A program made the translations under genes and the position numbers. From the NCBI GenBank assembly GCA_018656065.1, contig JABHZY010000015.1:5622-69621 (forward strand): a stretch of 64,000 bases of DNA. The letters are read 5' to 3'. The notes under the pieces are model-generated. The model had not been told where the DNA came from and made no database searches. It saw only the letters and a list, made by a program, of their open reading frames with translations. Positions 33,787 to 61,940 of this stretch are shown piece after piece (the first letter of the stretch is position 1; every line of letters starts with the position of its first letter). Source of the DNA: Candidatus Komeilibacteria bacterium. Lineage in GTDB: Bacteria; Patescibacteriota; Patescibacteriia; UBA1558; GWA2-36-10.

Positions 33787-33820
33787 CACCCGCCTAGACT
33801 CGAGTCCAGTCGGGGCTGGT
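33787..33820 (+). repeat. Family-F GC-rich element, copy 1 (CACCCGCCTAGACTCG-N11-GGCTGGT)
   Basis: The 16-nt and 7-nt blocks are identical to those at 39943-39976, while the centre differs. Confidence 0.6.
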
Positions 33821-33828
33821 ATTTTATC

Positions 33829-33985: not shown

Positions 33986-34061
33986 GGTGCCCATGGTGTA
34001 ACGGTTAACACAGCGGCTTGTGGTGCCGCTAATGAGGGTTCGATTCCCTCTGGGCACCCCA
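33986..34061 (+). tRNA. tRNA-His (anticodon GUG) with encoded G-1 and CCA
   Basis: Acceptor GTGCCCA/TGGGCAC, with an extra 5' G opposite discriminator C. D stem GTGT/ACAC, anticodon loop TTGTGGT, T arm GAGGG-TTCGATT-CCCTC. Confidence 0.85.
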
Positions 34062-34108
34062 TCAAAGAATGAGCTAGTATTAGCTCGTTTTTTGTTTTGT
34101 GGTATAAT
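34062..34108 (+). repeat. Junction cassette J1 (abuts the tRNA-His CCA): TCAAAGAAT-GAGCTA-GTAT-TAGCTC-T-run-TGGTATAAT
   Basis: Hairpin at 34071-34086 and TATAAT at 34103-34108. The ATG follows 6 nt later (leaderless geometry). Confidence 0.75.
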
Positions 34109-34114
34109 TTATTT

Positions 34115-35107
34115 ATGGAAAATAACGAAATTTCTTTTATATGTGACGATTCTTTTTCTGAAAAAGAAAAAGATTATATTTATGAAAATATTCATAAGGC
34201 CGAGAAGCATATAGATTCTTTTTTAGGAAAACCAGAAAAAAATAAATGGACTATTTCTAGGTTTAAACATGGTCAATCTTACTATGAGACCGATTATAAT
34301 AAAAAAACTATATATTTGGGCAGGGATATATTTTTAGATGCTTTAATGCACGAGATTATTCACGCTTGGCATGGATTAAATCTGTCATATGATTTTATAG
34401 AGGAGGGCATAACATGCGTAGCCGTTAATAACTTGTCTAGTAAGTTAAATTTTATTGATAATAATTCTACTAATTTTTCTAAAAGTAATAATTTTTCTGA
34501 GCTTATTTGTTTTGATCCAGTTCAAGGCACCAAGTCTAATATTCATCTTTTAGATTTTTACAGAACAAGAATTATTTTTGATGTTTGGATGAAGTATGAA
34601 AAAAAGACCCCCGGATTAGTTTATAACATTATTAATGAATTAAAGAGATTAGGAAAACAAGAGGATGGTCTAAAGGTCTTTATGAAAATCATAAACAAGT
34701 ATAATAAAGATTTATTCAAAGAGTTTGATAATATTTTTTCAGTCAATTTAAGATTAATAAAAAGAAGTATTAAATTTAGTACTTCTTTGAATATTTTGGG
34801 TGGAGTAGTAGATTATGGAATTAACAAAGCTATTTTGTTTGTAGCAGTTAAAAAAGTATTATCACAGATCATATTGAAAAATAACAAGGTCTATCCAGGA
34901 TTAGTTGATCATATACTAAAATTACCCAATGATGAATTATTATTCACAATAGAGTCATTTGAATCAAAAAAAACTAAATTTAAAGTTAAAGTTCTAGAAG
35001 ATGGCACCTTTGGTTTTAAATATGATAATTTATCACCTGGTATATATAATATTTATGCTGAATCAAACGATGGAAAATTAAAAGATAAAATAATATTAAG
35101 TATATGA
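34115..35107 (+). CDS. Hypothetical HExxH protein (SprT-like zinc-peptidase motif LMHEIIHAWH)
   Basis: Start set at MENNEISF, because the track start at 34097 overlaps the promoter. There is no signal peptide. Confidence 0.55.
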   Translation: MENNEISFICDDSFSEKEKDYIYENIHKAEKHIDSFLGKPEKNKWTISRFKHGQSYYETDYNKKTIYLGRDIFLDALMHEIIHAWHGLNLSYDFIEEGITCVAVNNLSSKLNFIDNNSTNFSKSNNFSELICFDPVQGTKSNIHLLDFYRTRIIFDVWMKYEKKTPGLVYNIINELKRLGKQEDGLKVFMKIINKYNKDLFKEFDNIFSVNLRLIKRSIKFSTSLNILGGVVDYGINKAILFVAVKKVLSQIILKNNKVYPGLVDHILKLPNDELLFTIESFESKKTKFKVKVLEDGTFGFKYDNLSPGIYNIYAESNDGKLKDKIILSI

Positions 35108-35661
35108 AAATATTAGCAATTGCAGACAGGCCCCCTAAAAATTTAATTAAGACTACAGTTGTATCAGAAAAAATAGACATTATATGCACTTTGGGCGATT
35201 TAGATTTTTTTGACATAAAAGAACTAAAGGAAATTAATGATATCCCCAAAATAGGTGTATATGGAAATCATTGTTCAGGTAAATATTTTGAAAGTTTAGG
35301 CATTAAGAACCTGCATTTGACTACTTTTAAGTTTATGGGCTATACCTTCGGTGGTTTTGAGGGCTCTCTACGATATAAGCAGGGCAAACACATCATGTAT
35401 ACTCAAGCGGAGGCAGAAAGAAAACTTTTTAATTATGAATATGTTGATATAATGTTAGCTCATAGCCCACCATATGGAGTAAATGATGACATTAACGACA
35501 ATACACATACTGGCCTTATAGGGTTAAAAAGATATATAGAAGCCAAATGCCCAAAATTTTTTTTACATGGACATACATATCCATCAGATCCAAATAAAAT
35601 TGTTGAATTAGGCGACACCAAAATAATTTATGTTTATCAGGATAAAGTTATAAATTTATAA
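35104..35661 (+). CDS. Calcineurin-like metallophosphoesterase
   Basis: ILAIADRP, GDLD, GNHC and HGHTY motifs. ATGA overlap with the upstream gene. Confidence 0.7.
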   Translation: MKILAIADRPPKNLIKTTVVSEKIDIICTLGDLDFFDIKELKEINDIPKIGVYGNHCSGKYFESLGIKNLHLTTFKFMGYTFGGFEGSLRYKQGKHIMYTQAEAERKLFNYEYVDIMLAHSPPYGVNDDINDNTHTGLIGLKRYIEAKCPKFFLHGHTYPSDPNKIVELGDTKIIYVYQDKVINL

Positions 35662-35792
35662 AATCAGGATTCTCCATCAAAAAAGTTCTGAAAGTGTCCC
35701 ATAGGGCACCCCATTTGTCCTGAGCGAGAGTAACGAGTCGAAGGGTCAAAAAGTGAGCTAACCTTAGCTCGTTTTTTGTTTTGTGGTATACT
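35661..35792 (+). repeat. Composite junction J2: E-box + tRNA-His-like minihelix + GC-rich insert + GAGCTA-ACCT-TAGCTC terminator + TGGTATACT
   Basis: AAATCAGGATTCTCCATCAAAAAAGTTCTGAAA, then GTGTCCCATAGGGCACCCCA (35694-35713), TTGTCCTGAGCGAGAGTAACGAGTCGAAGGGT, a hairpin at 35755-35770 and the -10 at 35787-35792. Confidence 0.75.
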
Positions 35793-35822
35793 TAAGGTGT
35801 TATTAAAATTTAAATTAAATTT

Positions 35823-36062
35823 ATGAAAAAAGTTTTATTAGTAGTTATTATTTTAGGTGCAGGATATTATTTTTGGCAACAATTTCAAAATAATAAACTT
35901 CAAGTATGTCCTGATAGATGGACTGATAATCAAGAATTGCCAATCGTACCAGGCAAAGAAACACAATATTTTATAATTGATGGAGCTAGAAGGGAATTAG
36001 ATGAATTTGATTTAGATTGGGTAAAAGAAAATTGTGATATTGAACCTATTATAGTTCAATAA
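35823..36062 (+). CDS. Small secreted/anchored hypothetical protein
   Basis: 79 aa with an N-terminal hydrophobic helix MKKVLLVVIILGAGYYFW. Confidence 0.5.
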   Translation: MKKVLLVVIILGAGYYFWQQFQNNKLQVCPDRWTDNQELPIVPGKETQYFIIDGARRELDEFDLDWVKENCDIEPIIVQ

Positions 36063-36070
36063 AATTTATT

Positions 36071-36221
36071 TTATTCTCCACTAAAAAAGTTCTGAAAGTG
36101 TCCCACCCTTCGGCTTCGCTCAGGGTCTACGATAGGACCCCATTTGTCCTGAGCGAGAGTAACGAGTCGAAGGGTCAAAAAGTGAGCTAGCAATAGCTCG
36201 TTTTTTGTTTTGTGGTATAAT
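36071..36221 (+). repeat. Composite junction J3 (as J2, with an extra GC-rich insertion splitting the minihelix)
   Basis: TTATTCTCCACTAAAAAAGTTCTGAAAGTGTCCCA, then CCCTTCGGCTTCGCTCAGGGTCTACGA, TAGGACCCCAT, TTGTCCTGAGCGAG..., a hairpin at 36184-36199 (loop GCAA) and TATAAT at 36216-36221. Confidence 0.75.
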
Positions 36222-36248
36222 TAAAGTATTATTAAAATAGAAAAAATA

Positions 36249-37832
36249 ATGAGTAAAATAAAAAGTAAGGTAAAAATAAAAAGTGGATTAACTATAGATG
36301 TTAGATTAGCTTTGTCTATAATGATAGTATCTACTGCTATGCTAGCCTTTAATTTTGCAGCAGCAATGTTTTCTTTGCCAGATAAGGAAGTAGTAGTTAA
36401 ACAAAACATAAACCAAAAAATAACAGGTATCGTAGAGTTACTTACTACGGATGATTTTGAAAATAATATAGCAACATATTTATATAGTATTAATGTAGAT
36501 GGTGTGCGATATGATTTACAATCACCTGACAAGCAGTTAAGTGATTATGTTGGTAAAGAAGTCATTATAGATGGTTCAATCAAAAGTGATGTTATTATAG
36601 CAAATTCTATTCAAGATACTTTATCAAAGAATATCTATCCAGCTGTATTGGGGGAACAAAAATATGTGGTTGTATATTTACTTGATGGGACAGAAGACCC
36701 TAGTTTTGATGCACAAGCTTATACAAATTTACATTTTGAGGGAGCTAATGATTTTATTATCCAAGAATCTATGGGTGGGGCTAACATAAGTGCGTTAACA
36801 AAAACCGTATTCTTTACAACTCCTTTATGTTCGTCTTTCGATGTTAAAAATTATGCAATCGAAGCAATTGACGCAGAGGTTGATTTTAATCAGTATGATG
36901 GAATAATTATTTATTTACCATACAATAGTTGTCTTAATTATACGGCTGTAGGAAGTGTTGGTAAGTGGGAGGTTAGCACAGATGATGGTCTTTTACCACT
37001 ATATTATGTCATAATGAATGGATATAGTAGTTCTGTTGTACCATCAGCTGTGCTTGGACATGAGATAGGGCATAATTTTGGATTTGCTCATTCTGCAAGT
37101 TTAGAATGTGGAGAATTTCCATATAGGAAGCCATTGGATAGTGAGTGTTATTACTATTCCTATGGAGATAGGTTTAATATAATGGGTGGAGGAACATATA
37201 GTACCCACTACAGTCTTAGTAATAAATTGAAAGCTGGTTGGATTGCTGACAAAGAAGTTATTATTGCAAATTTAGGGACTTATGCCTTGGCTTCTATTGA
37301 AAATTCAGATGGCTTCATGCCGCGTGGTATAAAAATTCCTATTTTATGGGATGCAGAAGATATAAAAGCAATAGAGTTATATTATCAATCATATTATCTT
37401 TATTTAGCAGAATATGGAGTTACAGATTATTTTTTAGAATATTGGAGTGATATTGATATGAGTTGGTTTTCAGATGAGGTATTTGATTGTCCAGATAATA
37501 CTTATGGCTTAAGCCCCTCGGACGTAGAGAGAGGCTTATTAATAAGAGTGGGGGCAGATCCTGAATATAAACTTGATTTTAGTTTAACTATGCATCCCAA
37601 TACTGAGGTTTGTTGGGGTTCAGATATTCAAGATTCTTGTCGTCCTGATTCTTGTTTAAATATGGCCATGTTCTCTGAACCATTTAAGTTTCTTTTGGAA
37701 GGAGAGACTTATTATGATCAATTTAATAATATGAAAATAACTTTATTATCCGCTGGAGACGAAACGGCGACAGTAAAGATTTCTAGAATATATGATGATA
37801 TAGATGCATATGAGATATATGAAGATCTTTAG
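36249..37832 (+). CDS. Membrane-anchored/secreted metzincin-type zinc metalloprotease
   Basis: HEIGHNFGFAHS (HExxHxxGxxH). The N-terminus has a K-rich segment plus a TM helix. Confidence 0.65.
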   Translation: MSKIKSKVKIKSGLTIDVRLALSIMIVSTAMLAFNFAAAMFSLPDKEVVVKQNINQKITGIVELLTTDDFENNIATYLYSINVDGVRYDLQSPDKQLSDYVGKEVIIDGSIKSDVIIANSIQDTLSKNIYPAVLGEQKYVVVYLLDGTEDPSFDAQAYTNLHFEGANDFIIQESMGGANISALTKTVFFTTPLCSSFDVKNYAIEAIDAEVDFNQYDGIIIYLPYNSCLNYTAVGSVGKWEVSTDDGLLPLYYVIMNGYSSSVVPSAVLGHEIGHNFGFAHSASLECGEFPYRKPLDSECYYYSYGDRFNIMGGGTYSTHYSLSNKLKAGWIADKEVIIANLGTYALASIENSDGFMPRGIKIPILWDAEDIKAIELYYQSYYLYLAEYGVTDYFLEYWSDIDMSWFSDEVFDCPDNTYGLSPSDVERGLLIRVGADPEYKLDFSLTMHPNTEVCWGSDIQDSCRPDSCLNMAMFSEPFKFLLEGETYYDQFNNMKITLLSAGDETATVKISRIYDDIDAYEIYEDL

Positions 37833-37860
37833 TAAATGATAGAGCTTTTATATATAGTTA

Positions 37861-37999
37861 TAACCAAGGTCCGAATGGGACCCTCGCCCGCTATGCTAGT
37901 GCAAGCGTGGCGAGTGGGCCAGCAAAAAGTGAGCTAACATTAGCTCGTTTTTTGTTTGCTGTATTTTTTTATTATTTATTGTTAATATATAAGTATAAT
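37861..37999 (+). repeat. Composite junction J4 (different GC-rich inserts, GAGCTA-ACAT-TAGCTC terminator, relocated TATAAT)
   Basis: GGTCC-GAAT-GGGACC and CTCGCC...GGCGAG hairpins. Terminator at 37931-37946 and TATAAT at 37994-37999. Confidence 0.65.
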
Positions 38000-38015
38000 A
38001 ATTTATTATAATTAT

Positions 38016-38291
38016 ATGAGTAAATGGGAAAAAATTAAAAATCTTGTTACTAATAAGTCAACTAGTGAGCAAAAGGAAGAGATGCCAAAAGAGTTAAGAA
38101 CGGCATCTGAAATAACTGAAAGTGGCACGGGTGAATTAGAAGGACAAATAGATGAAAAAGTAGAGTCAGAAAAACAAGAAGCTGCAGATTTAGAACATAG
38201 AGAAAGAGTAAGAAGAAGAATCGCAGAAATAGCAGGCCCCCCTGGCAAACTTGAAACCATAGGAGAGGACTCTGAAGAAAAGGAGAAATAA
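38016..38291 (+). CDS. Acidic, probably disordered hypothetical protein
   Basis: 91-aa ORF in the same orientation as the junction promoters. The overlapping antisense ORF is rejected. Confidence 0.45.
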   Translation: MSKWEKIKNLVTNKSTSEQKEEMPKELRTASEITESGTGELEGQIDEKVESEKQEAADLEHRERVRRRIAEIAGPPGKLETIGEDSEEKEK

Positions 38292-38342
38292 ATAATCAAA
38301 GAATGAGCTAATGTTAGCTCGTTTTTTGTTTTGTGGTATAAT
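38292..38342 (+). repeat. Junction cassette J5 (TCAAAGAAT-GAGCTA-ATGT-TAGCTC-T-run-TGGTATAAT)
   Basis: The 15 nt TCAAAGAATGAGCTA are identical to J1. Hairpin at 38305-38320 and TATAAT at 38337-38342. Confidence 0.75.
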
Positions 38343-38366
38343 TAGAGTGTTATTAAAATTTAAATC

Positions 38367-39101
38367 ATGACAAGCACAACAAAGAAAATTTTATCTATTA
38401 TTATTATAGTTATTATTATTATTTTTGTACTAGTATTAACTATAGGCCTTGATAGTGATGCTGGAGGTTCTCCATTTATGACTCCGCTTTTGGGTTTTTT
38501 AATATTTAGTATACCATTGGTATTTGTGGCTTTAGTTTCTATTATTCAGCTGAAGAGGGGTAGGTCATTTTGGAAAGGTTTACTACAAGGAATAGTATTG
38601 TGTGTAGTGTTGAGCGCTTTACTTACAATGGGTATGAGAATTTATGAGGCTGTAGATTATAATAATAAGAGACAAGAGAGATTAGATGCAATGAGATCTT
38701 TTAATCAGACAGAGCATTATAAAAAAGATCAATTAAAAATTAGTCAAATTGAATTTAGATTATATACTGAATCTAATCAAACTGTAATCTCAGTTGGTGA
38801 TGGCTTTATTACTAATAATTTAAAAAGAGATACGCAAATTTTAGGTGAGAAATCATTTTCTGAATATATGGAATTAGTTCAAACAAGTGAATTTTTAGAT
38901 TTAGACGAGATATATAAAAATAAAACAAGTCCAGCCAACACCGAAGAGAATTTATATATTATTACTTTATTTTCTGGCAGTAAGTCTTTTAAGATAGTGA
39001 GGTGTTCTGGTGATTATAACGATTGTCCACTGGTCATGAGAAAAGTTATGGATAAAATTGAAAATGATTTAGGGGAAGATCTTTTTTCTGAAAATAATTA
39101 A
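38367..39101 (+). CDS. Hypothetical multi-TM membrane protein with soluble C-terminal domain
   Basis: 244 aa. Three or four N-terminal TM helices and no motif. Confidence 0.55.
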   Translation: MTSTTKKILSIIIIVIIIIFVLVLTIGLDSDAGGSPFMTPLLGFLIFSIPLVFVALVSIIQLKRGRSFWKGLLQGIVLCVVLSALLTMGMRIYEAVDYNNKRQERLDAMRSFNQTEHYKKDQLKISQIEFRLYTESNQTVISVGDGFITNNLKRDTQILGEKSFSEYMELVQTSEFLDLDEIYKNKTSPANTEENLYIITLFSGSKSFKIVRCSGDYNDCPLVMRKVMDKIENDLGEDLFSENN

Positions 39102-39110
39102 ATTAGGATT

Positions 39111-39317
39111 ATGAATCAAGAATTACAAAATTATATTAACGAAGAAAAAAATATAGGTACTGATGATGAGGCTATTAAACAGAAATTAAGAGACAGTGGA
39201 TGGGAAGATAAAATGTTTAACGAGTATTTTATTACGCCCACTAATCAACAAGAACCACACGCAGAGAATGGAGGAGAGTGGACTTATAGTTTAAATACTG
39301 ATGCACGTTGTAAGTAA
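39111..39317 (+). CDS. Hypothetical small protein
   Basis: 68-aa ORF, 9 nt after the previous gene. Confidence 0.4.
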   Translation: MNQELQNYINEEKNIGTDDEAIKQKLRDSGWEDKMFNEYFITPTNQQEPHAENGGEWTYSLNTDARCK

Positions 39318-39336
39318 TTAGATATTTAAGACTTTA

Positions 39337-39502
39337 AAATCAGGATTCTCCACCAAAAAAGTGCTCCGCCCGACATCGCCTAACGACGAAGTCGTTGGCG
39401 GACGGGTGAAAGTGTTCCACCCCCTCCCTCGGGGGTTATAATAGAGGATCCCAGTCAAAGAATTACCTCATATTGAAGTGGTTTTTTGTTTTGTGCTATA
39501 CT
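39337..39502 (+). repeat. Composite junction J6 (E-box, two GC-rich palindromic inserts, degenerate hairpin, TGCTATACT)
   Basis: AAAATCAGGATTCTCCACCAAAAAAGT, an insert with AACGAC-GAA-GTCGTT, then GAAAGTGTTCCA, CCCCC-TCCCTC-GGGGG, ...CCCAGTCAAAGAAT. The -10 is at 39497-39502. Confidence 0.65.
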
Positions 39503-39525
39503 GAAGATGTTATTAAAATAAAGTT

Positions 39526-39825
39526 ATGAAAGTCAGTAAAAAAGAATGGGTAAATAGAGGGTTATTGAGAGAAAAAGCCTATCAATCAATTAAAGAAAGT
39601 GAATTAAAAAAACTAGTAAAAGTTGGTTTAAAAAATAATAAACTTAAAAAATATTTACTAGATTATTTTAGTTACAGAGAATATGACTATACAGTTTGCT
39701 ATAACTGTTATAAGTCTATGGATAAAGATGAAAATATTTCTGCTAACGGATGGGGTTTGATAGTCAATTATTGTAATGAGTGTGGAGACGAAAGAATGGA
39801 TCAGATTAAATCCAAGAATTTTTAA
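39526..39825 (+). CDS. Small Cys4 zinc-ribbon-like hypothetical protein
   Basis: CYNCYKS...YCNECGD pairs. Confidence 0.45.
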   Translation: MKVSKKEWVNRGLLREKAYQSIKESELKKLVKVGLKNNKLKKYLLDYFSYREYDYTVCYNCYKSMDKDENISANGWGLIVNYCNECGDERMDQIKSKNF

Positions 39826-39942
39826 AATATATGAATCAATAAATAACGAAGAATCGTGGGAAATAGAAAGAATTGGAGATTATCAATAACTTAAAACATA
39901 AGTAAACATAGCCAGAGCTCCGAACTTATCCCTTAGGGGCCC

Positions 39943-40041
39943 CACCCGCCTAGACTCGCATTTATGCGAGGCTGGTCAAAAAGTGACCTATTCGACTTCG
40001 CTCAGGGTCATTTTTTGTTTTTGTAGCATATATGATATAAT
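39943..40041 (+). repeat. Composite junction J7 (family-F copy 2 + conserved-loop terminator + TGaTATAAT)
   Basis: CACCCGCCTAGACTCG...GGCTGGT, then CAAAAAGTGACCT-ATTCGACTTCGCTCA-GGGTCA, a T-run, and TATAAT at 40036-40041. Confidence 0.65.
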
Positions 40042-40078
40042 TATATCGTAATAATTTAATAATTTAATAAATAAAATT

Positions 40079-40753
40079 ATGGCAATAACAAACAATTTTG
40101 GCCAAGAAACTATCAATATTGGCCAAGAAATCACCGCCTCTTTATTAGGAGTAGTTTATACAATAATTGATTGGGTGCCTCGAGTTATTGGGGTTCTTAT
40201 TATCTTAATTATTGGGCATTATCTAGCTAAAGGAGTTAAGCAGCTTATAAAAAAGGTTTTAAAAACCATCAAATTTGAAGATTTTATGGTTAAGCTTAAA
40301 GTTACTGACATGATAAAATCTCAAGGAGTGTCTTTAACTATTAGTGATATCGCTGTTTGGTTAATTTATTGGCTAGTATTTTTAGCATTTATTAGTGCAG
40401 CAGCTGATGTATTAGCTGTGCCTAGTATTACAGAATTTATAGCAATGGTTATATCATATATTCCATCTATATTTGCTGGGCTGATCATTATTCTTTTAGG
40501 TATTATAGCTGCTAATACTTTAAGCTCCTTTGTTAAAAATTTTAAAGGCGGCGATACATATAAACAATTGGTTCGTTGGTTTATTTTAGTTATTGCTTTT
40601 ATAGCTGCCATAGAGCAACTAGGTTTAGACATTAGTTTTGTTACCAATAATTTATTTATTATTCTAGCTGGAGTAATGCTGGCCTTTGGTTTAGCTTTTG
40701 GACTTGGTGGGCGTGATAAAGCCAGAGAAATTATAGATAGACATATTAGATAA
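40079..40753 (+). CDS. Hypothetical membrane protein (repeated TM-helix modules)
   Basis: 224 aa with about 5 TM helices. Faint resemblance to conserved-TM-helix repeat proteins. Confidence 0.5.
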   Translation: MAITNNFGQETINIGQEITASLLGVVYTIIDWVPRVIGVLIILIIGHYLAKGVKQLIKKVLKTIKFEDFMVKLKVTDMIKSQGVSLTISDIAVWLIYWLVFLAFISAAADVLAVPSITEFIAMVISYIPSIFAGLIIILLGIIAANTLSSFVKNFKGGDTYKQLVRWFILVIAFIAAIEQLGLDISFVTNNLFIILAGVMLAFGLAFGLGGRDKAREIIDRHIR

Positions 40754-40770
40754 CCAATTTATAACTTATC

Positions 40771-40826
40771 AAAAAAACCATTCTATTCGGAATGGTTTTT
40801 TGTTTTGTTTAAAATGATGGTATAAT
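40771..40826 (+). repeat. Junction cassette J8 (AACCATTC...GAATGGTT subfamily + TGGTATAATAAATACAT)
   Basis: Hairpin at 40776-40797 and TATAAT at 40821-40826. Confidence 0.7.
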
Positions 40827-40859
40827 AAATACATTAAAATAAAGATATAAAAGATAATT

Positions 40860-41789
40860 ATGTTGAAAGCATATTTTAAAACGGCTCAAAGTAAAAGATT
40901 AAGAAAGATTAAAAAAATTCGAGAAGGCTCTTGGATAAATATTAATCACGCAGAGCATGATGATTTAGAGGCTATTACTAAATTAACTGATTTAAGCCTT
41001 TTAGATTTACAGGATACCCTAGATCTACAAGAATTGCCTCGTATTGAAAGACACAATAAGAGTATCATTTTATTTATTAGAACACCGATAGCAAAAAATA
41101 GCGGTCATCAATTTATTCATACCGTGCCATTAGCTATTATTATTAATAGTAAATATTTTATTACTATTTCTGCTGAGAAGAATAGTATAATAAAAGAGAT
41201 ACAAAAAAACAGCCTATCAATTGCTACCACCCAAAGAGGTAAAATGTTAGTTTATGTGCTTTTGAGAGTTTCTAAAAGTTTTACTAATAGAGTTAAAGAA
41301 ATTAGCTATGAAGTTTTATCCAAAAAGAAGCACATTGAAAATATTAAAAATTCTGATATTAGTGAATTGATTAAACATGAGGATGTTCTTAATCAGTATA
41401 TTTCAGCTTTAATACCTATGAGAACTTTATTTGAAAATTTAATGAGTAGTAGTTACTTAAAATTTTATAGAGAAGATCAAGATTTATTTGATGATATGTT
41501 AAATAGCATTCGACAATCAGTAGATATTTGTCAGGTTAATCTAAAAAGTATTAAAAGTTTGCGGGAATCTTATCAGATTGTTTTTACTAATCGTTTAAAT
41601 AAAGTTATTCAGTTTCTTACAGCCTTTACTATTGTTATGACTATTCCTACTATTATAGCTAGTCTTTATGGTATGAATGTTGAATTGCCTTTAGCGGGCA
41701 GTAAGTTTGCTTTTCTATATGTCTTGTTTTTTTCTTCATTTGGAATAGCGGCCTTTCTTTTCTTTTTTTATAAGAAAAAGTGGTTGTAA
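40860..41789 (+). CDS. corA: CorA-family magnesium/cobalt transporter
   Basis: YGMNV motif, followed by two C-terminal TM helices. Confidence 0.8.
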   Translation: MLKAYFKTAQSKRLRKIKKIREGSWININHAEHDDLEAITKLTDLSLLDLQDTLDLQELPRIERHNKSIILFIRTPIAKNSGHQFIHTVPLAIIINSKYFITISAEKNSIIKEIQKNSLSIATTQRGKMLVYVLLRVSKSFTNRVKEISYEVLSKKKHIENIKNSDISELIKHEDVLNQYISALIPMRTLFENLMSSSYLKFYREDQDLFDDMLNSIRQSVDICQVNLKSIKSLRESYQIVFTNRLNKVIQFLTAFTIVMTIPTIIASLYGMNVELPLAGSKFAFLYVLFFSSFGIAAFLFFFYKKKWL

Positions 41790-41790
41790 T

Positions 41791-41881
41791 TAGGATTTCC
41801 AATCAAAAAAGTTATTATAGTATTCTAAAGTTTTTATATTTTTAAAAAACCATTCCATTTGGAATGGTTTTTTGGTATAAT
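41791..41881 (+). repeat. Junction J9 (degenerate E-box TAGGATTTCCAATCAAAAAAGTT + AACCATTCC-ATTT-GGAATGGTT terminator + TGGTATAATAAATATAT)
   Basis: Hairpin at 41848-41869 and TATAAT at 41876-41881. Confidence 0.7.
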
Positions 41882-41907
41882 AAATATATAATATTTAAAT
41901 TTAAAAT

Positions 41908-43569
41908 ATGATTGAAGTAAAAACTAAAGTCAAAAATGCCTTAGGCATTAAAACTAAATTATCATTATTACTTATAGCGGCTACAGCCCTATCATTTAGT
42001 GTTACATCTTTTGCTATGCTGTCTGTTAATTTTGAAAAACTCAAAGCTAAAAAAAATGTCCCATCTAGTATTACAAAACAAGTTAGTAATGAGGTTTCAG
42101 GGCAGGTGAAAGATATATTGACAGGAGAAGCTCTATCTAATGTCACTGTAACTTTCACTAATTCAAATGATCCTGGTGAAATTTATAATACGGTTGTTGA
42201 CGCTGACGGTAATTATGAATTAGTTTTGGGTGCAGCTGGAGAGTATGATGTATATACAAATTATAATACAGTAGAATATTATGGTTATCAAGATTCTTAT
42301 TTACAAATAAATACATTCCCGTTTGTTTATAATGTAAATTTATTGCAATATGAAGATTATGACATGGAGGCTAATTGGGATTGTAGCAGTGAATTTAATA
42401 TTACACCAGGAGATTTTCCATTAATTACTTATATGGACAGATACTATGAATTACTTAATATTTATATTAATAATGGAACATTAACTCAAGCAGAATGGGA
42501 TGAATTAATAGCTCTTAAATGGGGCACTATTAATAGTATTAAATCTGAATTACAAATAATAAATAATGATATTAGTAATCAGCTGTATGTAGATGGTGAA
42601 TATGCCTCAATTCTTCTGGACAAAACTTTATGTAATTATCGTACAGAAATCGACTTTTATTATAGTTTAGATCATTCAGCGTGGCCACCAGTATATCCGA
42701 ATGAATTAAATCCTCATTCACATATTAGTACTAATTATTGGTACGATAATGACAATCGTAGTATTTTGAATACTATCAATGAAATAATAAAAGCTAATCC
42801 AAGTATTGTTGCACAAGAATTATTTGATAATCAAGCAATAGAAAAGATAGCGAGTATTTTGGACTGGCAAATAAAATTTAGTTCAGAAGGTGATAAAATA
42901 AAAGGTAGGCATCCTTGGACTTTTTGGGATGATTATGCAGAACATTTAAGATTAGATGATATGAGCTGGGTTCATCCATCTGACGCTATTTATCCTAATA
43001 CTCAACGCAGGTTGATGCTTTTTTATACAAATGGAATAGATGCTTTATTAAGTATGTTAGTAAATATAGCAGATAATAGTGATAAAGAATTATTAAATGA
43101 TTCATTGAAGAATAATGGTATATTTGCAAAAAATTATAAATTAATGACCTTACCTTCTATTACCGACGCCACAATGCCTGCCTATAGAGTACATGTAATA
43201 GGTCGAAATTTAGATCTTTTGAATATAATGTATCCCTATGTATTTAGAAATGAAAATGTTCAAGATATTGTAGCCTGGAACAATGAAAATAAAAATCAAA
43301 ATAGTCATTTCTGGACATATATAGCTACAGATAAAGTTTTTACGCATCATGATCAAGAGATGATAGAGATTTCAAATTTATTTAATAATTTTTGTACCAG
43401 CACTAGCACTACAGGATTAAATGGTGTTTGTTCACCTATAGAAAAACCATTATTTTGTGATAATGGAAATATTGTAAACAATTGTCAACGTTGCGGTTGT
43501 GTAAGTGGAGCAGAGTGTCATGACCGTGGTTATTGCTATATTGATGAAATACCCGCAATACATTTTTAA
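41908..43569 (+). CDS. Secreted/anchored protein with CarboxypepD_reg-like domain and Cys-rich C-terminus
   Basis: SGQVKDILTGEALSNVTVTF...DADGNYEL, and C-terminal CSPIEKPLFCDNGNIVNNCQRCGCVSGAECHDRGYCY. Confidence 0.55.
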   Translation: MIEVKTKVKNALGIKTKLSLLLIAATALSFSVTSFAMLSVNFEKLKAKKNVPSSITKQVSNEVSGQVKDILTGEALSNVTVTFTNSNDPGEIYNTVVDADGNYELVLGAAGEYDVYTNYNTVEYYGYQDSYLQINTFPFVYNVNLLQYEDYDMEANWDCSSEFNITPGDFPLITYMDRYYELLNIYINNGTLTQAEWDELIALKWGTINSIKSELQIINNDISNQLYVDGEYASILLDKTLCNYRTEIDFYYSLDHSAWPPVYPNELNPHSHISTNYWYDNDNRSILNTINEIIKANPSIVAQELFDNQAIEKIASILDWQIKFSSEGDKIKGRHPWTFWDDYAEHLRLDDMSWVHPSDAIYPNTQRRLMLFYTNGIDALLSMLVNIADNSDKELLNDSLKNNGIFAKNYKLMTLPSITDATMPAYRVHVIGRNLDLLNIMYPYVFRNENVQDIVAWNNENKNQNSHFWTYIATDKVFTHHDQEMIEISNLFNNFCTSTSTTGLNGVCSPIEKPLFCDNGNIVNNCQRCGCVSGAECHDRGYCYIDEIPAIHF

Positions 43570-43592
43570 TTAATTTTAAAATAAAGAATACT

Positions 43593-43631
43593 AAAAAAAC
43601 CATTCCACTGAGAGTGGTTTTTTGATATAAT
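43593..43631 (+). repeat. Junction cassette J10 (near-duplicate of J9)
   Basis: AAAAAAACCATTCCACTGAGAGTGGTTTTTTGATATAATAAATACAT. TATAAT at 43626-43631. Confidence 0.7.
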
Positions 43632-43657
43632 AAATACATAAGATTTAAATTTAAATT

Positions 43658-43921
43658 ATGAAAAAATTATTATTAATTTTAGCCATTCCTTTGTTAATGG
43701 GTGTAGGCTGTGTCAAAACAGAAACTTTAACCAATAAGGAGATTAATGAAGGCTTAGCTAGTGGTGAGCTCGCTTGTAACACAGCTAAACATTGCGCCGA
43801 TTTGGGCTTTGTCTGTGAAGATGAATTAAATTCTCCACGATGTTTAACGGATTATGATTTAGCTGGGCGTATAATTGAGTATCCTGTATGTATTTGTATT
43901 AATCCAAATTTAGATTATTAA
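43658..43921 (+). CDS. Small Cys-rich putative lipoprotein
   Basis: Signal peptide ending LMGVGC, with 7 further Cys. Confidence 0.5.
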   Translation: MKKLLLILAIPLLMGVGCVKTETLTNKEINEGLASGELACNTAKHCADLGFVCEDELNSPRCLTDYDLAGRIIEYPVCICINPNLDY

Positions 43922-43925
43922 AATA

Positions 43926-44363
43926 ATGAAAAAATTTTGCTGCAGTAACTATTTAAAAATAACTCAAGAAGCTTTTACGCTCGTTGAGTTATTGGTCGTT
44001 ATAGCAATAATTGGTATTTTATCTACAGCGGCAGTAGTTAATTTTAATACTACACGAGAAAAAGCTAAAGTTGCTGGAGCAAAGGCTTGGGGTTCAGCTC
44101 TTAAACCAGCAGTTATATTTTGTGATAGTCAAGGGTCTATTCTTACTGATCCAATGAACACGCCAACAGTTTATGGCGGTGGTGGTGCTCTTTGTATGCC
44201 AGATGTAGGCGTAGACTGGCCAACTGAAATGCCAGAAGGTTATAATCGTATAAATGTATTAAGTAATGGTCAGGGTTTGTGGGTTTTTGAAATTCGTACT
44301 TTTAATGTGACGCCTTTGTTACCAGAAGTTATTTGCAATAATTTTGAGGGTTGTGCTGGATAA
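43926..44363 (+). CDS. Type IV pilin-like protein (Ala at -1)
   Basis: QEA/FTLVELLVVIAIIGILS N-terminal methylation-type motif. Confidence 0.7.
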   Translation: MKKFCCSNYLKITQEAFTLVELLVVIAIIGILSTAAVVNFNTTREKAKVAGAKAWGSALKPAVIFCDSQGSILTDPMNTPTVYGGGGALCMPDVGVDWPTEMPEGYNRINVLSNGQGLWVFEIRTFNVTPLLPEVICNNFEGCAG

Positions 44364-44463
44364 AATAATAAATTAAATAATATTAATATAAAAATTAAAA
44401 GCCAAAATAAATGTTAATCGGTCATTTTTAACTGCTGAGCGATTTTTTATTTTGTTTATTTTA

Positions 44464-44472
44464 TGTTATAAT
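44464..44472 (+). promoter_or_regulatory. Extended -10 promoter TGtTATAAT of the repeat-protein gene
   Basis: TG at 44464-44465 and TATAAT at 44467-44472, preceded by TTTTTTATTTTGTTTATTTT. Confidence 0.45.
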
Positions 44473-44527
44473 AATTATATTATAGTATAAAAATTTTAAA
44501 ATATATTAAACACTCTAAAATTAAATT

Positions 44528-46801
44528 ATGAAAAAAGTTAAAACACAAACTAAGAGTCGTGTGGCAACTAAAGCTGGTGTATCAGTTGGACATAAGATAG
44601 CTCTTTCTATGTTGATTGCTTCAGCTTTTGCGTTGGGATTAAATTTTGCAGGCATGGCAATGCAATTGCCCAAAAAGCTAAAAGTCAAAAAAGTAAGAGT
44701 GAGTGCACCAACACCTCTTACAGTAAATATTACTAATGCGGCAATAAATGTTCCAATTTTTTATCCCGATGGATCCACAGCTTCATTTAGTAGCAGTGGC
44801 ATAGATCAGGGTAGCCTAGATATGGGGTCTAATAATTATTCTCATGCATCAGGTTCAGGTGGCGGTATATTACGAGGGCCATTAAAATTATCTTTGTCTC
44901 ATATGGAAGAAGGGCCTATTACTTTACCAGCTAGAATTATCAGATTAGAAGAGTTTGATATTAATGTATACAATCTTTGTGTACCAGAAACTACAGTATT
45001 TAATGAAGAATTAAATTATCCAGCTTCATATTATTATGATATCAATGGTACGCCGTATCATGATGTCAATCTTACACAAAGAGCTATTCCAGCACCATGT
45101 AACGTATTATTGGCCAATGCTTATGATCCAAGTGCTGTCACAGACGCCAAAGCAAATTTAGCTTTATCTGGATATTCAGAAGATGTTTACGCGGATTTTT
45201 ATTCTAATTTTAATAACTATCAGCAGAGTGCACACGGTCATCTTAATATTAGAAACAATACCTTTCAAAATTATAACACAACACATTTTCCAGGCGCGCC
45301 TTTGTCAATACTTTTATTTAATAATGAAGCTGACAATTTAACAGGATTTACTATACCATCTAGGATAGTAAAAGTCTTTAACTATGATCTAGAAAAAAAT
45401 CTTTGTCTTCCAGGAACAGTAATTTCTACATCTAGATATAGTCCGTCAATTTATTTCTACGATAACAACGGTACTCCATATTATGACTCTTTATTGACCG
45501 ACATGGCTACACCAGCTCCATGTAATCAACTCTTAGCTAATCGTTTTGAAACATATGATGGTATAAATGAAGCATTGATTAATTATATTGATTATGAGTT
45601 AGAATATGGTTCTCTATATTTTAATAATAATTTTGATGTCAATTTTAATGGTCAAGGAAATTTGTGGTTAGACTCTAATTACTATGACAATTATCCACCA
45701 ACAGTGTTGGGAGGACATTTAGAAGGTGCACCAATGGCCATTTCTATTTTACAAGATTCAAATAACGGAGCTATTTTAGCTCCTAGAGTTGTAAAGTTAA
45801 GCATGGATGATCAATCAGAGCATATAATTTGTGTACCAGAAACATATGTTCCTGGCGGCTCAGATTATCCAGAGATTAAAACTCCAGTATATTTTTATGA
45901 TAATAATGGCACCCCATATCACGATTCTTTATTGACTGATATGGCTACACCGGCTCCATGTAATCAACTTTTAGTAAATAAACTTGATGTTGGAATCAGT
46001 GATGTAAATGTTAATATCCCAGTTTGGAACCCTACTATTTCTTCAGCTGGATTCTTATATAATTTTGGTGCGCCAGATATGCATAAGGGCAACCTTAATT
46101 TACGTATGAGTCAATATGATCTTTTTACAGAATCAAATCAAGTAGGAGCACCTTTGGCCATAGAAGTGCTTCATGGCGAAGGTTCGAGTGCTATTGTGCC
46201 AGCTAGAGTATTGGTAATGCAAAGTTTTGACGGTGATTATTATACACTTTGTTTACCAGATTCTTTGATTAGGTCAGAGGAAAGAGAATTATATTTTTAT
46301 GACAATAATGGTACTCCATACTATGATTCGTTGATGACTGATATGGCAACTCCTAAAGCATGTAATCAATTATTAGCCAATGCTTTAGATATAGATCATG
46401 TATCTAATGCTAGTGTGGCTAGTACTCTTGATAGTCCGGATATAGCGGAAGTTCATTTTATACAAAATGGAGCACCAATTGGGAGTTTAGATTTAAATAC
46501 AAATATTTTTGATGAAAATGAATGGGGCAGTAATGATTTATTTATAAATCCATTGGTAATATTTTTGACTCATGGCGAAGAGGGAGATCAAAGATTCCCA
46601 AATATGAGACTTGGCGTTGAATCAGGTGATTCTAGATATTCTCTTTGTGTACCACCCTCTTTGGTAACAGACTATACTCATACAGGGCCGATTCATTATT
46701 TCTATGATAGTGAAGGTAATCCGTATAGAGATAGTATATTAACTCAAAGAATTACTTGTCCACCAATAAACACTCATTATAATATACAAGAATTGCCTTA
46801 A
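44528..46801 (+). CDS. 757-aa secreted/anchored protein built from five tandem ~135-145-aa repeats
   Basis: The motif [LC.P]...YFYDNNGTPY[YH]DSLLTDMATPAPCNQLLAN recurs at about nt 45030, 45463, 45889, 46291 and 46693. The N-terminus has a K-rich segment plus a TM helix. Confidence 0.7.
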   Translation: MKKVKTQTKSRVATKAGVSVGHKIALSMLIASAFALGLNFAGMAMQLPKKLKVKKVRVSAPTPLTVNITNAAINVPIFYPDGSTASFSSSGIDQGSLDMGSNNYSHASGSGGGILRGPLKLSLSHMEEGPITLPARIIRLEEFDINVYNLCVPETTVFNEELNYPASYYYDINGTPYHDVNLTQRAIPAPCNVLLANAYDPSAVTDAKANLALSGYSEDVYADFYSNFNNYQQSAHGHLNIRNNTFQNYNTTHFPGAPLSILLFNNEADNLTGFTIPSRIVKVFNYDLEKNLCLPGTVISTSRYSPSIYFYDNNGTPYYDSLLTDMATPAPCNQLLANRFETYDGINEALINYIDYELEYGSLYFNNNFDVNFNGQGNLWLDSNYYDNYPPTVLGGHLEGAPMAISILQDSNNGAILAPRVVKLSMDDQSEHIICVPETYVPGGSDYPEIKTPVYFYDNNGTPYHDSLLTDMATPAPCNQLLVNKLDVGISDVNVNIPVWNPTISSAGFLYNFGAPDMHKGNLNLRMSQYDLFTESNQVGAPLAIEVLHGEGSSAIVPARVLVMQSFDGDYYTLCLPDSLIRSEERELYFYDNNGTPYYDSLMTDMATPKACNQLLANALDIDHVSNASVASTLDSPDIAEVHFIQNGAPIGSLDLNTNIFDENEWGSNDLFINPLVIFLTHGEEGDQRFPNMRLGVESGDSRYSLCVPPSLVTDYTHTGPIHYFYDSEGNPYRDSILTQRITCPPINTHYNIQELP

Positions 46802-46806
46802 AATAT

Positions 46807-47736
46807 ATGGAATTAAATTACCCATTAGTATTTAGTTTTTTATTTATAATTTTTGCTGCGTTCTATTTATTACGCGGTAAAACATCAGGCGCTGCTGGCA
46901 ATAAAGCTAGCGGTGGTTCAGCTACTTTTGTAAATAATTTTTCTACAGATTTAACAGCTTTAGCCAGAGAAGACAAGTTGGATCCAGTTATTGGAAGAGA
47001 TAAGGAAATAAAAAAGGTTGTTCAGGTTTTGTCTCGTCGTCGTAAAAATAATATCATTATTTTTGGTAAAGCCGGTATTGGTAAGACAGCCATTGCTGAA
47101 GGACTGGCTATTGCTATTGCCCAAGGCTTAGTTCCTAAGAATTTGGCAGACAAGATAGTACTCAAGATTGAATTATCATCTGTTTTGGCTGGCACAAAGT
47201 ATCGAGGTGAATTTGAGAAAAGATTTAAAAGCCTTATAGACAATGTTATATCTATGGATAAGCGCATTATTGTCTTTATGGATGAAATTCATACCATAGT
47301 GCAAGCTGGGGGCACAGAGGGGTCAGTAGATGCTGATGATATTATTAAGGCACCACTCGCTAGGGGTGAATTACAGATGATAGGTACTACTACTACCGAG
47401 GAGTATAAAAAATACATAGAGCCAGATAAGACTTTGACTAGGCGATTTGAAGGCTATCTCATGAAAGAGCCGGATAAAAAGACTACAGTTAAAATGCTAG
47501 AAGCTCTTAAGAAAAATTATGAAGAATATCATCGAGTATCTATTGGCAGTGATATCATAAAACAGATAGTGGAAGGTACAGCCAAGATAAAAGACAGATC
47601 TTTCCCAGATAAAGCTATAGATATTTTAGATGAAGTTTGCGCTCAGGTTAGACTTAATAATTCAGATTCAGAAAAAATTATAAAAGTGACAAGTAAAGAT
47701 TTAAAAGAAGCGATAAAAGAATATCACAATTACTAA
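46807..47736 (+). CDS. Membrane-anchored single-domain Clp/Hsp100 D1-type AAA+ ATPase
   Basis: N-terminal TM helix (LVFSFLFIIFAAFYLL), then LDPVIGRDKEIKKVVQVLSRRRKNN, Walker A GKAGIGKT, Walker B IVFMDEIH, GTTT and RRFE. It ends after D1. Confidence 0.7.
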   Translation: MELNYPLVFSFLFIIFAAFYLLRGKTSGAAGNKASGGSATFVNNFSTDLTALAREDKLDPVIGRDKEIKKVVQVLSRRRKNNIIIFGKAGIGKTAIAEGLAIAIAQGLVPKNLADKIVLKIELSSVLAGTKYRGEFEKRFKSLIDNVISMDKRIIVFMDEIHTIVQAGGTEGSVDADDIIKAPLARGELQMIGTTTTEEYKKYIEPDKTLTRRFEGYLMKEPDKKTTVKMLEALKKNYEEYHRVSIGSDIIKQIVEGTAKIKDRSFPDKAIDILDEVCAQVRLNNSDSEKIIKVTSKDLKEAIKEYHNY

Positions 47737-47744
47737 AACAAAAA

Positions 47745-47774
47745 ATCGCCCTTAGGGCGATTTTTTGGTATAAT
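47745..47774 (+). repeat. Terminator-promoter junction J12 (ATCGCCC-TTA-GGGCGAT + TTTTTTGGTATAAT)
   Basis: Hairpin at 47745-47761 and TATAAT at 47769-47774. Confidence 0.7.
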
Positions 47775-47780
47775 AAAATT

Positions 47781-47837
47781 ATGGAAAAGTCTTTAAAATT
47801 AAGTAAAGGCAAGATAATATTAACTATGGTTTTATGA
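47781..47837 (+). CDS. Possible leaderless 18-codon upstream ORF overlapping the patatin start (ATGA)
   Basis: ATG lies 6 nt after TATAAT. The peptide is MEKSLKLSKGKIILTMVL. Its TGA (47835-47837) overlaps the patatin ATG (47834-47836). Confidence 0.3.
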   Translation: MEKSLKLSKGKIILTMVL

Positions 47838-61938: not shown

Positions 61939-61940
61939 GT

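Follow-up and report, generated by a model that had tools for sequence, protein, structure and literature searches.

A putatively recombination-built and insulated array of gene segments downstream of tRNA-His in Komeilibacteria

The DNA analysed here (the window) is a 64,000-nucleotide (nt) stretch of contig JABHZY010000015.1 from Candidatus Komeilibacteria bacterium, a member of the Patescibacteria (candidate phyla radiation, CPR); names given to identical and homologous proteins likewise indicate Candidatus Komeilibacteria. Downstream of a tRNA-Arg/tRNA-His gene pair, it carries an array of short segments, most of one or two genes, that are separated by copies of an intergenic unit (Table 1). 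The unit resembles the 3' flank of tRNA-His and combines a predicted transcription terminator with a predicted promoter, and the array may have been assembled by recombination at these junctions. The gene content is as described in an initial annotation made from the sequence without database searches: an HExxH protein, a protein with a weak Metallophos match, a Reprolysin-like metalloprotease, CorA, a CarboxypepD_reg protein, an N_methyl pilin and an AAA/AAA_lid_9 ATPase can be named, while the array genes beyond these and the other matches in Table 1 have no recognised family. PADLOC and PHROGs searches gave weak matches for segment 1, but no defence or phage identity for the segment proteins beyond weak phosphoesterase and AAA matches. 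No homologue of segment 1 was found in any related locus compared.

Table 1. Anchor tRNA genes, repeated units and gene segments of the array (coordinates are positions in the window)
Feature	Coordinates	Strand	Description
tRNA-Arg(tct)	33878..33952	+	ARAGORN; Rfam tRNA, 70 bits; first of the tRNA pair anchoring the locus
tRNA-His(gtg)	33987..34061	+	3' end ...GGGCACCCCA; ARAGORN, Rfam; array anchor
Unit 0	34062..34114	+	Native tRNA-His 3' flank: trailer TCAAAGAAT (34062-34070), hairpin GAGCTA-GTAT-TAGCTC (34071-34086), T-tract, extended -10 TGGTATAAT (34100-34108)
Segment 1	34115..35661	+	HExxH protein (34115-35107); metallophosphoesterase-like protein (35104-35661; weak Metallophos match)
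Unit 1	35662..35822	+	3'-untranslated region (UTR) motif, GTGTCCCATAGGGCACCCCAT, GC-rich insert (35715-35745), trailer TCAAAAAGT, loop-ACCT hairpin, TGGTATACT, leader
Segment 2	35823..36062	+	79-aa secreted ORFan between units 1 and 2
Unit 2	36063..36248	+	Like unit 1, plus a second GC-rich insert (36106-36132); loop GCAA
Segment 3	36249..37832	+	527-aa reprolysin-like metalloprotease with N-terminal signal anchor; identical neighbours in 22 assemblies
Unit 3	37833..38015	+	GC-rich hairpins, ...GGGCCAG, trailer CAAAAAGT, loop-ACAT hairpin, T-tract; -10 ~40 nt downstream
Segment 4	38016..38291	+	91-aa acidic ORFan
Unit 4	38292..38366	+	Trailer TCAAAGAAT, loop-ATGT hairpin, TGGTATAAT, leader; without tRNA-end remnant
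Segment 5	38367..39317	+	244-aa membrane protein; 68-aa ORFan
Unit 5 (degenerate)	39318..39525	+	3'-UTR motif, two GC-rich inserts, ...GGATCCCAG, trailer TCAAAGAAT (39455-39463), weaker hairpin, TGCTATACT (39494-39502), leader
Segment 6	39526..39825	+	99-aa Cys-rich (zinc-ribbon-like) ORFan
Unit 6 (degenerate)	39826..40078	+	Trailer TCAAAAAGT (39976); GTGACC...GGGTCA hairpin with GC-rich motif in loop; TGATATAAT (40033-40041)
Segment 7	40079..40753	+	224-aa MS_channel_1st_1 membrane protein
Subfamily-2 junction	40754..40859	+	AAAAAACCATTC-loop-GGAATGGTTTTTT, TGGTATAAT at 40818; fold z = -5.6
CorA	40860..41789	+	Family match
Subfamily-2 junction	41790..41907	+	3'-UTR motif at 41788
CarboxypepD_reg protein	41908..43569	+	553 aa; bracketed by 68-nt repeats, 88% identical
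Subfamily-2 junction	43570..43657	+	Altered hairpin; repeat family, fold
Distal segments	43658..47833	+	Terminator-promoter junctions unrelated to the units; lipoprotein + N_methyl pilin (43658-44363); 757-aa repeat protein + AAA/AAA_lid_9 ATPase (44528-47736); junction (47737-47833)

The repeated unit is recognised by a 27-nt pattern, GAGCTA-N4-TAGCTC-GTTTTTTGTTT, which occurs five times in the window with 0 mismatches (at 34071, 35755, 36184, 37931 and 38305), as compared with 0.01 occurrences expected from shuffled sequences. Two degenerate units (39455-39502 and 39976-40041) and three copies of a second, CCATTCC-type junction subfamily (40772, 41844 and 43594) accompany the exact copies, and all of the unit motifs in the window are confined to 34-44 kb. 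The junction had been described as reiterated a dozen times; the reiteration stands, with about ten copies, and the second subfamily does bracket the 553-aa gene as first noted. Following the CCA of tRNA-His, the elements of the first copy (unit 0) are ordered TCAAAGAAT-GAGCTA-GTAT-TAGCTC-GTTTTTTGTTTTG-TGGTATAAT, with an ATG 6 nt past TGGTATAAT. The T-tract and TGGTATAAT lie directly after four of the five exact copies, and again at 39482 with 2 mismatches, while in the 37931 copy the -10 element is displaced ~40 nt further downstream. Four copies share the leader GTGTTATTAAAAT, as had been reported (without mismatch at 35797 and 38347, with a single one at 36226 and at 39507). The full unit is longer than first described (~110-190 nt): it begins just past the upstream stop codon with a 3'-UTR motif, AATCAGGATTCTCCAYCAAAAAAGT (four copies: 35662, 36066, 39338 and 41788), and continues with a GC-rich piece ending in ...CCCCA and then the trailer, 27-31-nt GC-rich inserts interrupting some copies. 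Units 1 and 2, on either side of the 79-aa ORF, are 88% identical over 122 nt and carry the same GC-rich insert.

The 4-nt loop differs in each of the five exact copies (GTAT, ACCT, GCAA, ACAT and ATGT), as originally noted. Across the whole family, including units from related genomes, the loops are not free to vary but are drawn from a small related set (ACAT, ACCT, ATCT, ATCC, ATTT and ACCC, plus the inverted ATGT and AGGT). Within this set, ACAT (37937-37940) and ATGT (38311-38314) are reverse complements, as are ACCT and AGGT (the latter in a hairpin from ~1304 of L029; L-numbers denote loci or stretches fetched from relatives), which points to loop inversion inside the palindromic stem.

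The stem itself is not invariant, as had been claimed, and its variation is that of an RNA. When 20 distinct units from the window and its relatives were aligned, a 14-bp helix comprising A-tract, stem, loop, stem and U-tract was found to have standard pairs in 280/280 cells, as compared with 40-55% paired in slid controls. At two helix columns the pairs are mostly G.U, where the other strand would have C.A mismatches, and compensatory changes are seen in the closing stem pair (GC, UA, AU). All of the junction folds lie well below those of shuffled sequences (z-scores -2.8 to -6.9), with unit 0 at -16.4 kcal/mol (z = -6.9) and the degenerate unit 5 at -10 kcal/mol (z = -3.2). Full pairing, G.U on one strand only and compensation together argue for an intrinsic terminator that acts at the RNA level on the + strand; such changes would be unexpected at a site recognised by a regulator or recombinase. 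With a hairpin directly before a U-tract, the unit has the defining features of a predicted intrinsic (Rho-independent) terminator, and with TGGTATAAT, TGGTATACT or TGATATAAT located 6-45 nt upstream of each ATG, it has those of a predicted sigma-70 extended -10 promoter. The earlier proposal that each junction both terminates and initiates transcription is therefore upheld as a prediction. Hairpin, T-tract and TGNTATAAT form the general intergenic layout in the window, where they recur with unrelated hairpins at 22887, 26568, 47766, 57317 and 60169. As a terminator followed by TGNTATAAT is normal in this genome, the architecture is ordinary and the special point is the reuse of one sequence. 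The ATGs in the array region have no visible Shine-Dalgarno-like sequence ahead of them. At two junctions (34100-34117 and 47766-47783) the ATG lies 6 nt past TATAAT, which suggests that these transcripts are leaderless or nearly so.

The palindrome could also be read as an operator, with GAGCTA-N4-TAGCTC as the site of a dimeric regulator that covers the -35 region and co-regulates secreted proteins. Many of the downstream genes do encode secreted or membrane proteins, and in four window copies the 16-bp palindrome is centred ~24.5 nt upstream of the -10. However, insertions alter both the content of the unit and the hairpin-to--10 spacing (0, +8, +10, +23 and ~+40 nt among copies), the half-sites compensate instead of staying fixed, the flanking A-tract and T-tract co-vary with G.U on one strand only, and the tRNA-proximal copy is clearly the terminator of the tRNA operon. 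Based on the variable spacing, the compensating half-sites and the one-strand G.U pairs, we rejected this reading as highly improbable.

The source of the unit is indicated by its tRNA-proximal copies. An xAGCTA-N4-TAGCTx terminator lies directly 3' of tRNA-His in the window, L012, L013, L023 and L029, with a CGCTA variant in L037, and this tRNA-adjacent hairpin is orthologous across species and co-varies (GAGCTA/TAGCTC, TAGCTA/TAGCTA, AAGCTA/TAGCTT and CGCTA/TAGCG). The Arg-His tRNA pair also precedes the arrays in L013, L015, L016, L029, L033, L037 and L039, and the tRNA-His gene of the window is 97% identical to those of L033, L036 and L039. In most copies that do not adjoin a tRNA, CCCCA (the discriminator plus CCA) or a close variant is found right before the trailer, and GTGTCCCATAGGGCACCCCAT in unit 1 retains 14/17 of the final nucleotides of tRNA-His. 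Taken together, the orthologous hairpin, the CCCCA remnants and the unit 1 match argue that the unit is a reiterated tRNA-His 3' flank. Past CCCCA, a tRNA likeness (the T-arm-like AGGGTTC..GAATTCC) reaches significance in L018-type units alone (p = 0.003-0.04 by local alignment against shuffled sequences), and a degenerate tRNA half in the units is suggestive only.

The units might alternatively hold a tRNA-like module at the end of mRNAs, in which a short hairpin plus CCCA mimics the acceptor end of tRNA-His and RNase P, RNase Z and the CCA-adding enzyme generate a defined, protected mRNA 3' end. The element (GT)YCCC-loop-GGGRAC-CCCA is GC-rich in an AT-rich genome and is kept in many units across species, some of its changes hit both sides of a pair, and the GC-rich inserts fall in its loop and spare the stem. 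Pairing in this element is nevertheless weak (70% of cells versus 35-58% in slid controls), with three of the six pairs departing only via unpaired cells; the element is missing from units 3, 4 and 6; and the tRNA likeness past CCCCA is absent from units other than the L018 type. A search of the window and of clean units against Rfam 15, at the gathering threshold and at E-values up to 10, gave no match, tRNA-like or other, except the two tRNAs. We regard such a module as very unlikely.

Copies of the unit appear to be specific to this one locus. When one reference genome per species (185,579 species) was scanned with an exact 24-nt pattern, six exact matches were found in five Patescibacteria genomes, and all six lie in tRNA-Arg/tRNA-His loci, from 0 to ~5 kb downstream of tRNA-His (the L018 match, which has no tRNA in its own stretch, was placed via its metagenome counterpart L029). 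A metagenome scan returned the same loci plus short contigs with arrays of 2-3 units, while viral contigs gave 0 matches. In both the reference and metagenome scans, every clade match with visible context has the tRNA orientation and lies no further than ~8 kb downstream of tRNA-His. The view of the junction as anchored at tRNA-His and locus-specific, for which a search for copies elsewhere had been suggested as a check, has thus held up. All units found in a hidden Markov model (HMM) search likewise share the tRNA orientation; by this search the arrays comprise five units in the window, four in L029/L018, three in L025 and two each in L012, L023, L026 and L015+L011. Two short contigs of the same strain (L049 and L050) begin 175 and 56 nt upstream of the metalloprotease gene, which is inside unit 2, and the contig of the closest relative (P0002, 95% identical in a neighbour protein) ends near the tRNAs. 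Contig ends at units or tRNAs are expected if repeats break short-read assemblies, so array lengths in metagenome-assembled genomes are likely underestimated.

A short, repeated and structured intergenic element common to several species could be a miniature inverted-repeat transposable element (MITE), its terminator and promoter being incidental, and unrelated GC-rich mini-inserts in these genomes do behave as small mobile insertions. In each genome examined, however, the units are limited to a single locus and all point the same way; they showed neither terminal inverted repeats nor consistent target duplications, and no transposase was found in the window ORFs scanned. On these grounds the MITE reading was rejected as extremely improbable.

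The locus was then compared among relatives, which the initial annotation had suggested as a check for presence and absence of cassettes. Upstream of the array lies a block encoding pyruvate:ferredoxin oxidoreductase, a Big_13 protein, a histidine kinase, Rpe, RpiB, a membrane protein and the two tRNAs, and this block is syntenic in all fetched relatives (52-81% protein identity). The content downstream of tRNA-His, by contrast, is unrelated in L013, L015, L016/L041, L033, L036, L037 and L039, although in L013 a 46% identical homologue of gene 41908-43569 is found from ~0.9 kb past tRNA-His. Between species the expected differences are thus complete; within the strain, the same gene order was found in 22-29 assemblies. 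As the same array was independently assembled in more than 20 samples, an assembly artefact was rejected.

In two sister genomes, the same tRNA carries islands with their own recombinase. In both L033 (6261-7961) and L039 (6350-7981), a large serine recombinase gene (Resolvase, Recombinase and Zn_ribbon_recom domains) runs convergently to tRNA-His, with an overlap that covers the last ~33 nt of the tRNA. Although the two recombinases have just 24% identity, they share the C-terminal sequence WGAQRESNPH, whose codons lie antisense to the end of tRNA-His. Both islands contain defence-type genes: the L033 island carries AbiEii and HsdR, and the 7.4-kb L039 island carries SIR2 and a NucS-like protein, with a CCCCA-trailer-GAGCTA-promoter unit at its far end, 7.4 kb from tRNA-His. 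A third island, in L044, is at least 6 kb long and encodes a recombinase of the same kind (1-229), a methylase and a helicase, followed by a unit; its tRNA end lies outside the fetched stretch. Recombinase genes that overlap tRNA-His indicate that this gene is a real integration site in the clade, as had been supposed from the tRNA 3' end, and that the old flank is shifted downstream when an island integrates. A search for direct repeats of tRNA-His at the distal ends of the L033 and L039 islands yielded only chance-level 8-11-mers. In agreement with the initial caveat, no integrase or recombinase was found among the window ORFs of at least 100 aa, all of which were scanned except two overlapping larger genes. 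L036 has a GIY-YIG ORF (7610-7882) between tRNA-Arg and tRNA-His.

A mosaic structure is apparent where array genes are shared between genomes. The window CorA (40860-41789) and that of L041 (10001-10930) are 94.5% identical in protein and 90% in DNA sequence, whereas core genes of the same two genomes have only 52-64% protein identity (this being the one pair where a core comparison was possible). Of the downstream genes of L041, CorA alone has a homologue in the window; the other 13 have none. Similarly, the channel-like ORF (40079-40753) is 89% identical in DNA to an ORF of L027/L044 (L027 4494-5168), where its neighbours are unrelated. The homology runs from ~10 nt before the ATG to the stop codon for CorA and from about -10 to just past the stop codon for the channel-like ORF. 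Across both shared blocks it starts 10-25 nt before the ATG and excludes the hairpin and promoter. These patterns point to recent gene-sized horizontal transfer of CorA and the channel-like ORF between co-occurring Komeilibacteria.

The units show the converse pattern, as they are 85-97% identical between genomes though the ORFs flanking them are unrelated. Unit 2, for example, is 91-92% identical to units of L025 and L041 that have unrelated flanking ORFs, and the tRNA-proximal unit and leader of L013 recur with 93% identity in L026, non-proximally and before a different gene. As the ORF blocks exclude the junctions and the junctions are shared without the ORFs, the two behave as separate mosaic modules with breakpoints at the junction edges. 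The proposal that each cassette brings its own terminator and promoter is not borne out by these data.

This independence bears directly on an integron-like reading, in which tRNA-His and its flank form the primary attachment site, the units are attachment sites of small circular cassettes and a recombinase encoded elsewhere acts in trans. Such a platform would account for a unidirectional, ORFan-rich array of 0.3-1.8-kb segments, for units that are imperfect palindromes with a conserved stem and variable centre, and for their placement downstream of a single tRNA in its orientation. It would also fit the CCCCA kept in non-proximal units and the T-arm-like AGGGTTC..GAATTCC of L018 and L022, the use of tRNA-His by two divergent serine recombinases in relatives and the recurrence of comparable arrays in several species. 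The left part of the L039 distal unit, which is ~65% identical (by eye) to the L018-type left part, would fit an attachment arm from a former island. Several observations argue otherwise, however. First, ORFs are unlinked to their neighbouring units, as the shared blocks exclude units and units are shared without ORFs. Second, the stem compensates and needs G.U on one strand only, as an RNA would, and hairpin-to--10 spacing and unit content vary through insertions. Third, the integron core sites GTTRRRY/RYYYAAC are absent from the units, whose arms (CAAAAAGT/GTTTTTTG) do not fit GTTRRRY. Finally, the window ORFs scanned include no recombinase, and the 22-29 assemblies show no strain-level polymorphism. 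We consider a platform of this type distinctly unlikely. It is similarly doubtful that the unit doubles as attachment site and terminator-promoter, with single-gene, one-unit circles moved in trans, possibly by the tRNA-His-targeting serine recombinases, as an IntI/attC-independent cassette system.

The sharing of units before unrelated ORFs could also mean that they are a regulatory module and nothing else, a strong terminator-promoter whose local spread is due to duplication, gene conversion or the horizontal transfer of regulatory sequences, with the turnover of genes due to ordinary hotspot processes unrelated to the units. The units fit the published description of putative mobile promoters (PMC3488235), the terminator-promoter layout is general in this genome, and the units of one genome are closer to each other than to those of other genomes, which suggests spread inside the genome. 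This explanation leaves three features unaccounted for: the retention of the tRNA CCCCA end, the occurrence at tRNA-His only and in a single orientation in at least five species, and the bracketing of segments by near-identical units. It appears to us unlikely.

Our preferred interpretation, which we hold with moderate confidence, is that the locus is a recombination-built, insulated cassette array, a hypervariable accessory-gene locus downstream of tRNA-His in this Komeilibacteria lineage. It brings together the anatomy of the array, the paired terminator helix, the restriction of the units to one locus, the turnover between species, the ORF-sized mosaic blocks and the recombinase islands at the same tRNA. 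Each junction would be a copy of the tRNA-His 3' flank, consisting of ...CCCCA, the 9-nt trailer, an intrinsic terminator, the extended -10 TGGTATAAT and the conserved leader, and would stop transcription of the upstream gene and restart it for the downstream gene. With a stop and a restart at every junction, each segment of one or two genes would be an insulated transcription unit. Recombination at this flank, by which DNA would come and go, would explain why copies are confined to the region downstream of tRNA-His and share its orientation.

Such exchange most likely proceeds by homologous recombination, with the conserved 50-140-nt junctions serving as portable homology arms; that recombination occurs at the units is our inference. 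A single cross-over of circularised DNA containing one junction would give a segment bracketed by two junctions, whereas a double cross-over in two junctions would replace the ORF between them. The type IV pilus genes at 60208-63712 make DNA-uptake machinery plausible. A second route, seen in the sister genomes, would be integration of large-serine-recombinase islands into the tRNA, by which the old flank moves downstream and material is added proximally. The initial reading of the locus as the product of serial site-specific insertion or as a cassette-shuffling platform is thus supported in part.

Several points weigh against a recombination-built array. Neither strain-level cassette polymorphism nor polymorphism at a unit was found in the 22-29 assemblies, and no circular cassette intermediate was seen. 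Breakpoints at the ORF edges suit homologous exchange, but the L041 copy of CorA has no junction downstream, so at least some transfers would need illegitimate or one-sided recombination. Frequent recombination or gene conversion between units should homogenise their loops, yet the five window loops all differ. Furthermore, the promoter and terminator activities of the units are predictions from sequence, and the apparent locus specificity comes from exact-pattern scans, which would miss diverged copies elsewhere.

Other features of the window deserve mention. GC-rich mini-inserts of 25-40 nt, belonging to several families, occur in AT-rich intergenic DNA in both orientations, often in hairpin loops or leaders. 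They are found in the array (35715-35745, 36106-36132, 36144-36174, 39359-39440, 39985-40008 and 39927-39975) and elsewhere in the window (31852-31874, 12595-12623, 2606-2646, 21394-21424 and 33785-33821). Their motifs include CCNTTCGNCTNCGCTCAGGG, GTCCTGAGCGAGAGTAACGAGTCGAAGGG, ATGGCCCAGGCCAYCCTCTCTGGC and CACCCGCCTAGACTCG...GGCTGG, and the same inserts split units and leaders in L012, L013, L016, L025 and L026. Their appearance is that of small mobile GC clusters. A larger stretch, 14434-15201, has a GC content of 0.41 compared with ~0.32 and contains a TTG-start ORF with only a weak histidine-phosphatase match; it may be foreign DNA. Among the array proteins, the 757-aa protein (44528-46801) has four to five internal repeats of ~420 nt (45029-46400) that are 63-73% mutually identical. 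Three large secreted proteins (36249-36380, 41908-42040 and 44528-44670) start with a Lys-rich N-terminus, after which comes a hydrophobic segment that is similar in all three (...ALSIMIVSTAMLAFNFA..., ...LLLIAATALSFSV... and ...ALSMLIASAFALGLNFA..., respectively), and this common N-terminus may be a clade-specific export signal.

CPR bacteria have tiny genomes, and their means of acquiring and expressing accessory genes are, to our knowledge, almost entirely unknown. Reuse of one tRNA flank as a portable stop-and-start module would mean that an ORF placed between two copies is insulated and expressed at once, while co-occurring species could exchange DNA through the homology, or the attachment site, that this flank would provide. 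Secreted proteases, pilins, channels and ORFans are concentrated at the locus; these are the kind of surface functions in which an episymbiont would require variation. In practical terms, the unit is a candidate terminator-promoter part for CPR genetics, and the tRNA-His-targeting serine recombinases define a natural integration site that might serve as the basis of an integration vector. Were the site-specific reading correct, the array would represent a second, independent invention of the integron principle.

The initial annotation stated that no described system has this layout, which is too strong: tandem islands at tRNA genes, staphylococcal cassette chromosome (SCC) arrays, integrons and integrase-less attC clusters (CALINs), and mobile promoters (PMC3488235) each share parts of it. 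tRNA-linked islands typically have attB/attP common cores of 25-76 bp (PMC8092301). Like islands and prophages at tRNA 3' ends, including tandem ones, the array is anchored at such an end and has a cargo that differs among relatives; its direct repeats hold the last tRNA nucleotides and the downstream flank (52 nt, from CCCCA to the -10), and recombinase-bearing islands are found at the same tRNA in sister genomes. It is unlike them in its lack of any integrase or recombinase in the window, in its short segments (0.3-1.8 kb), in a repeat that is a predicted terminator-promoter, and in the independent exchange of ORFs and repeats. Among the features that identify such islands, the tRNA 3'-end location and a distal repeat of the tRNA 3' part are present, with weak likeness deeper into the tRNA; a recombinase inside the island is lacking in the window and present in L033 and L039; and presence/absence among relatives is seen between species, with no variation within the strain.

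Chromosomal integrons and CALINs, such as the Vibrio VCR arrays, contain unidirectional, ORFan-rich cassettes separated by ~100-nt imperfect palindromic repeats. The array is similarly unidirectional, with ORFan-rich segments of one or two genes and ~100-nt imperfect palindromes that are homogeneous within a lineage. In contrast to integrons, it lacks IntI and RYYYAAC/GTTRRRY core sites, each spacer contains a predicted promoter, the hairpin has the G.U pairs of an RNA terminator and ORFs are unlinked to the adjacent repeat. As IntI or attC core sites, and linkage of each ORF to its own repeat, were looked for and are absent, the locus is not a member of the integron family. Nor does it have the terminal inverted repeats, target-site duplications and scattered copies in both orientations of MITEs or REP-like elements.

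In staphylococci, the Ccr large serine recombinases mobilise the tandem elements, many of them recombinase-less, that make up composite SCC and psiSCC arrays at the rlmH (orfX) 3' end, and direct repeats of the integration site flank these elements. The array likewise uses one conserved gene end as its anchor, has tandem recombinase-less segments bounded by repeats of the anchor flank and has large serine recombinases at the same site in relatives. It differs in that the anchor is a tRNA gene, the repeats are much longer and contain a predicted terminator and promoter, the segments are of single-gene size and the serine recombinases are only putatively tied to them. In the minimal mobile elements of Neisseria, natural transformation is followed by homologous recombination in conserved flanks, by which the cassettes are exchanged. 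Here too, unrelated genes occupy the same slot between conserved flanks with breakpoints at the flank edges, but the flanks are reiterated intergenic modules instead of conserved genes, and many equivalent slots are arranged in series.

Putative mobile promoters are 50-100-nt upstream regions of at least 80% identity that precede non-homologous genes within or across genomes (Matus-Garcia et al. 2012, PMC3488235), a description that the units, with 85-97% identity between genomes, fit. Unlike such promoters, the array copies lie in one locus and orientation, are fused to a terminator and a tRNA-end remnant, and bracket segments. Literature searches on CPR bacteria in connection with integrons or tRNA islands revealed no published description of such a locus. 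Features of tRNA islands, SCC-type arrays, integron/CALIN arrays and mobile promoters come together in it, and what is unusual about it is a spacer predicted both to stop and to restart transcription.

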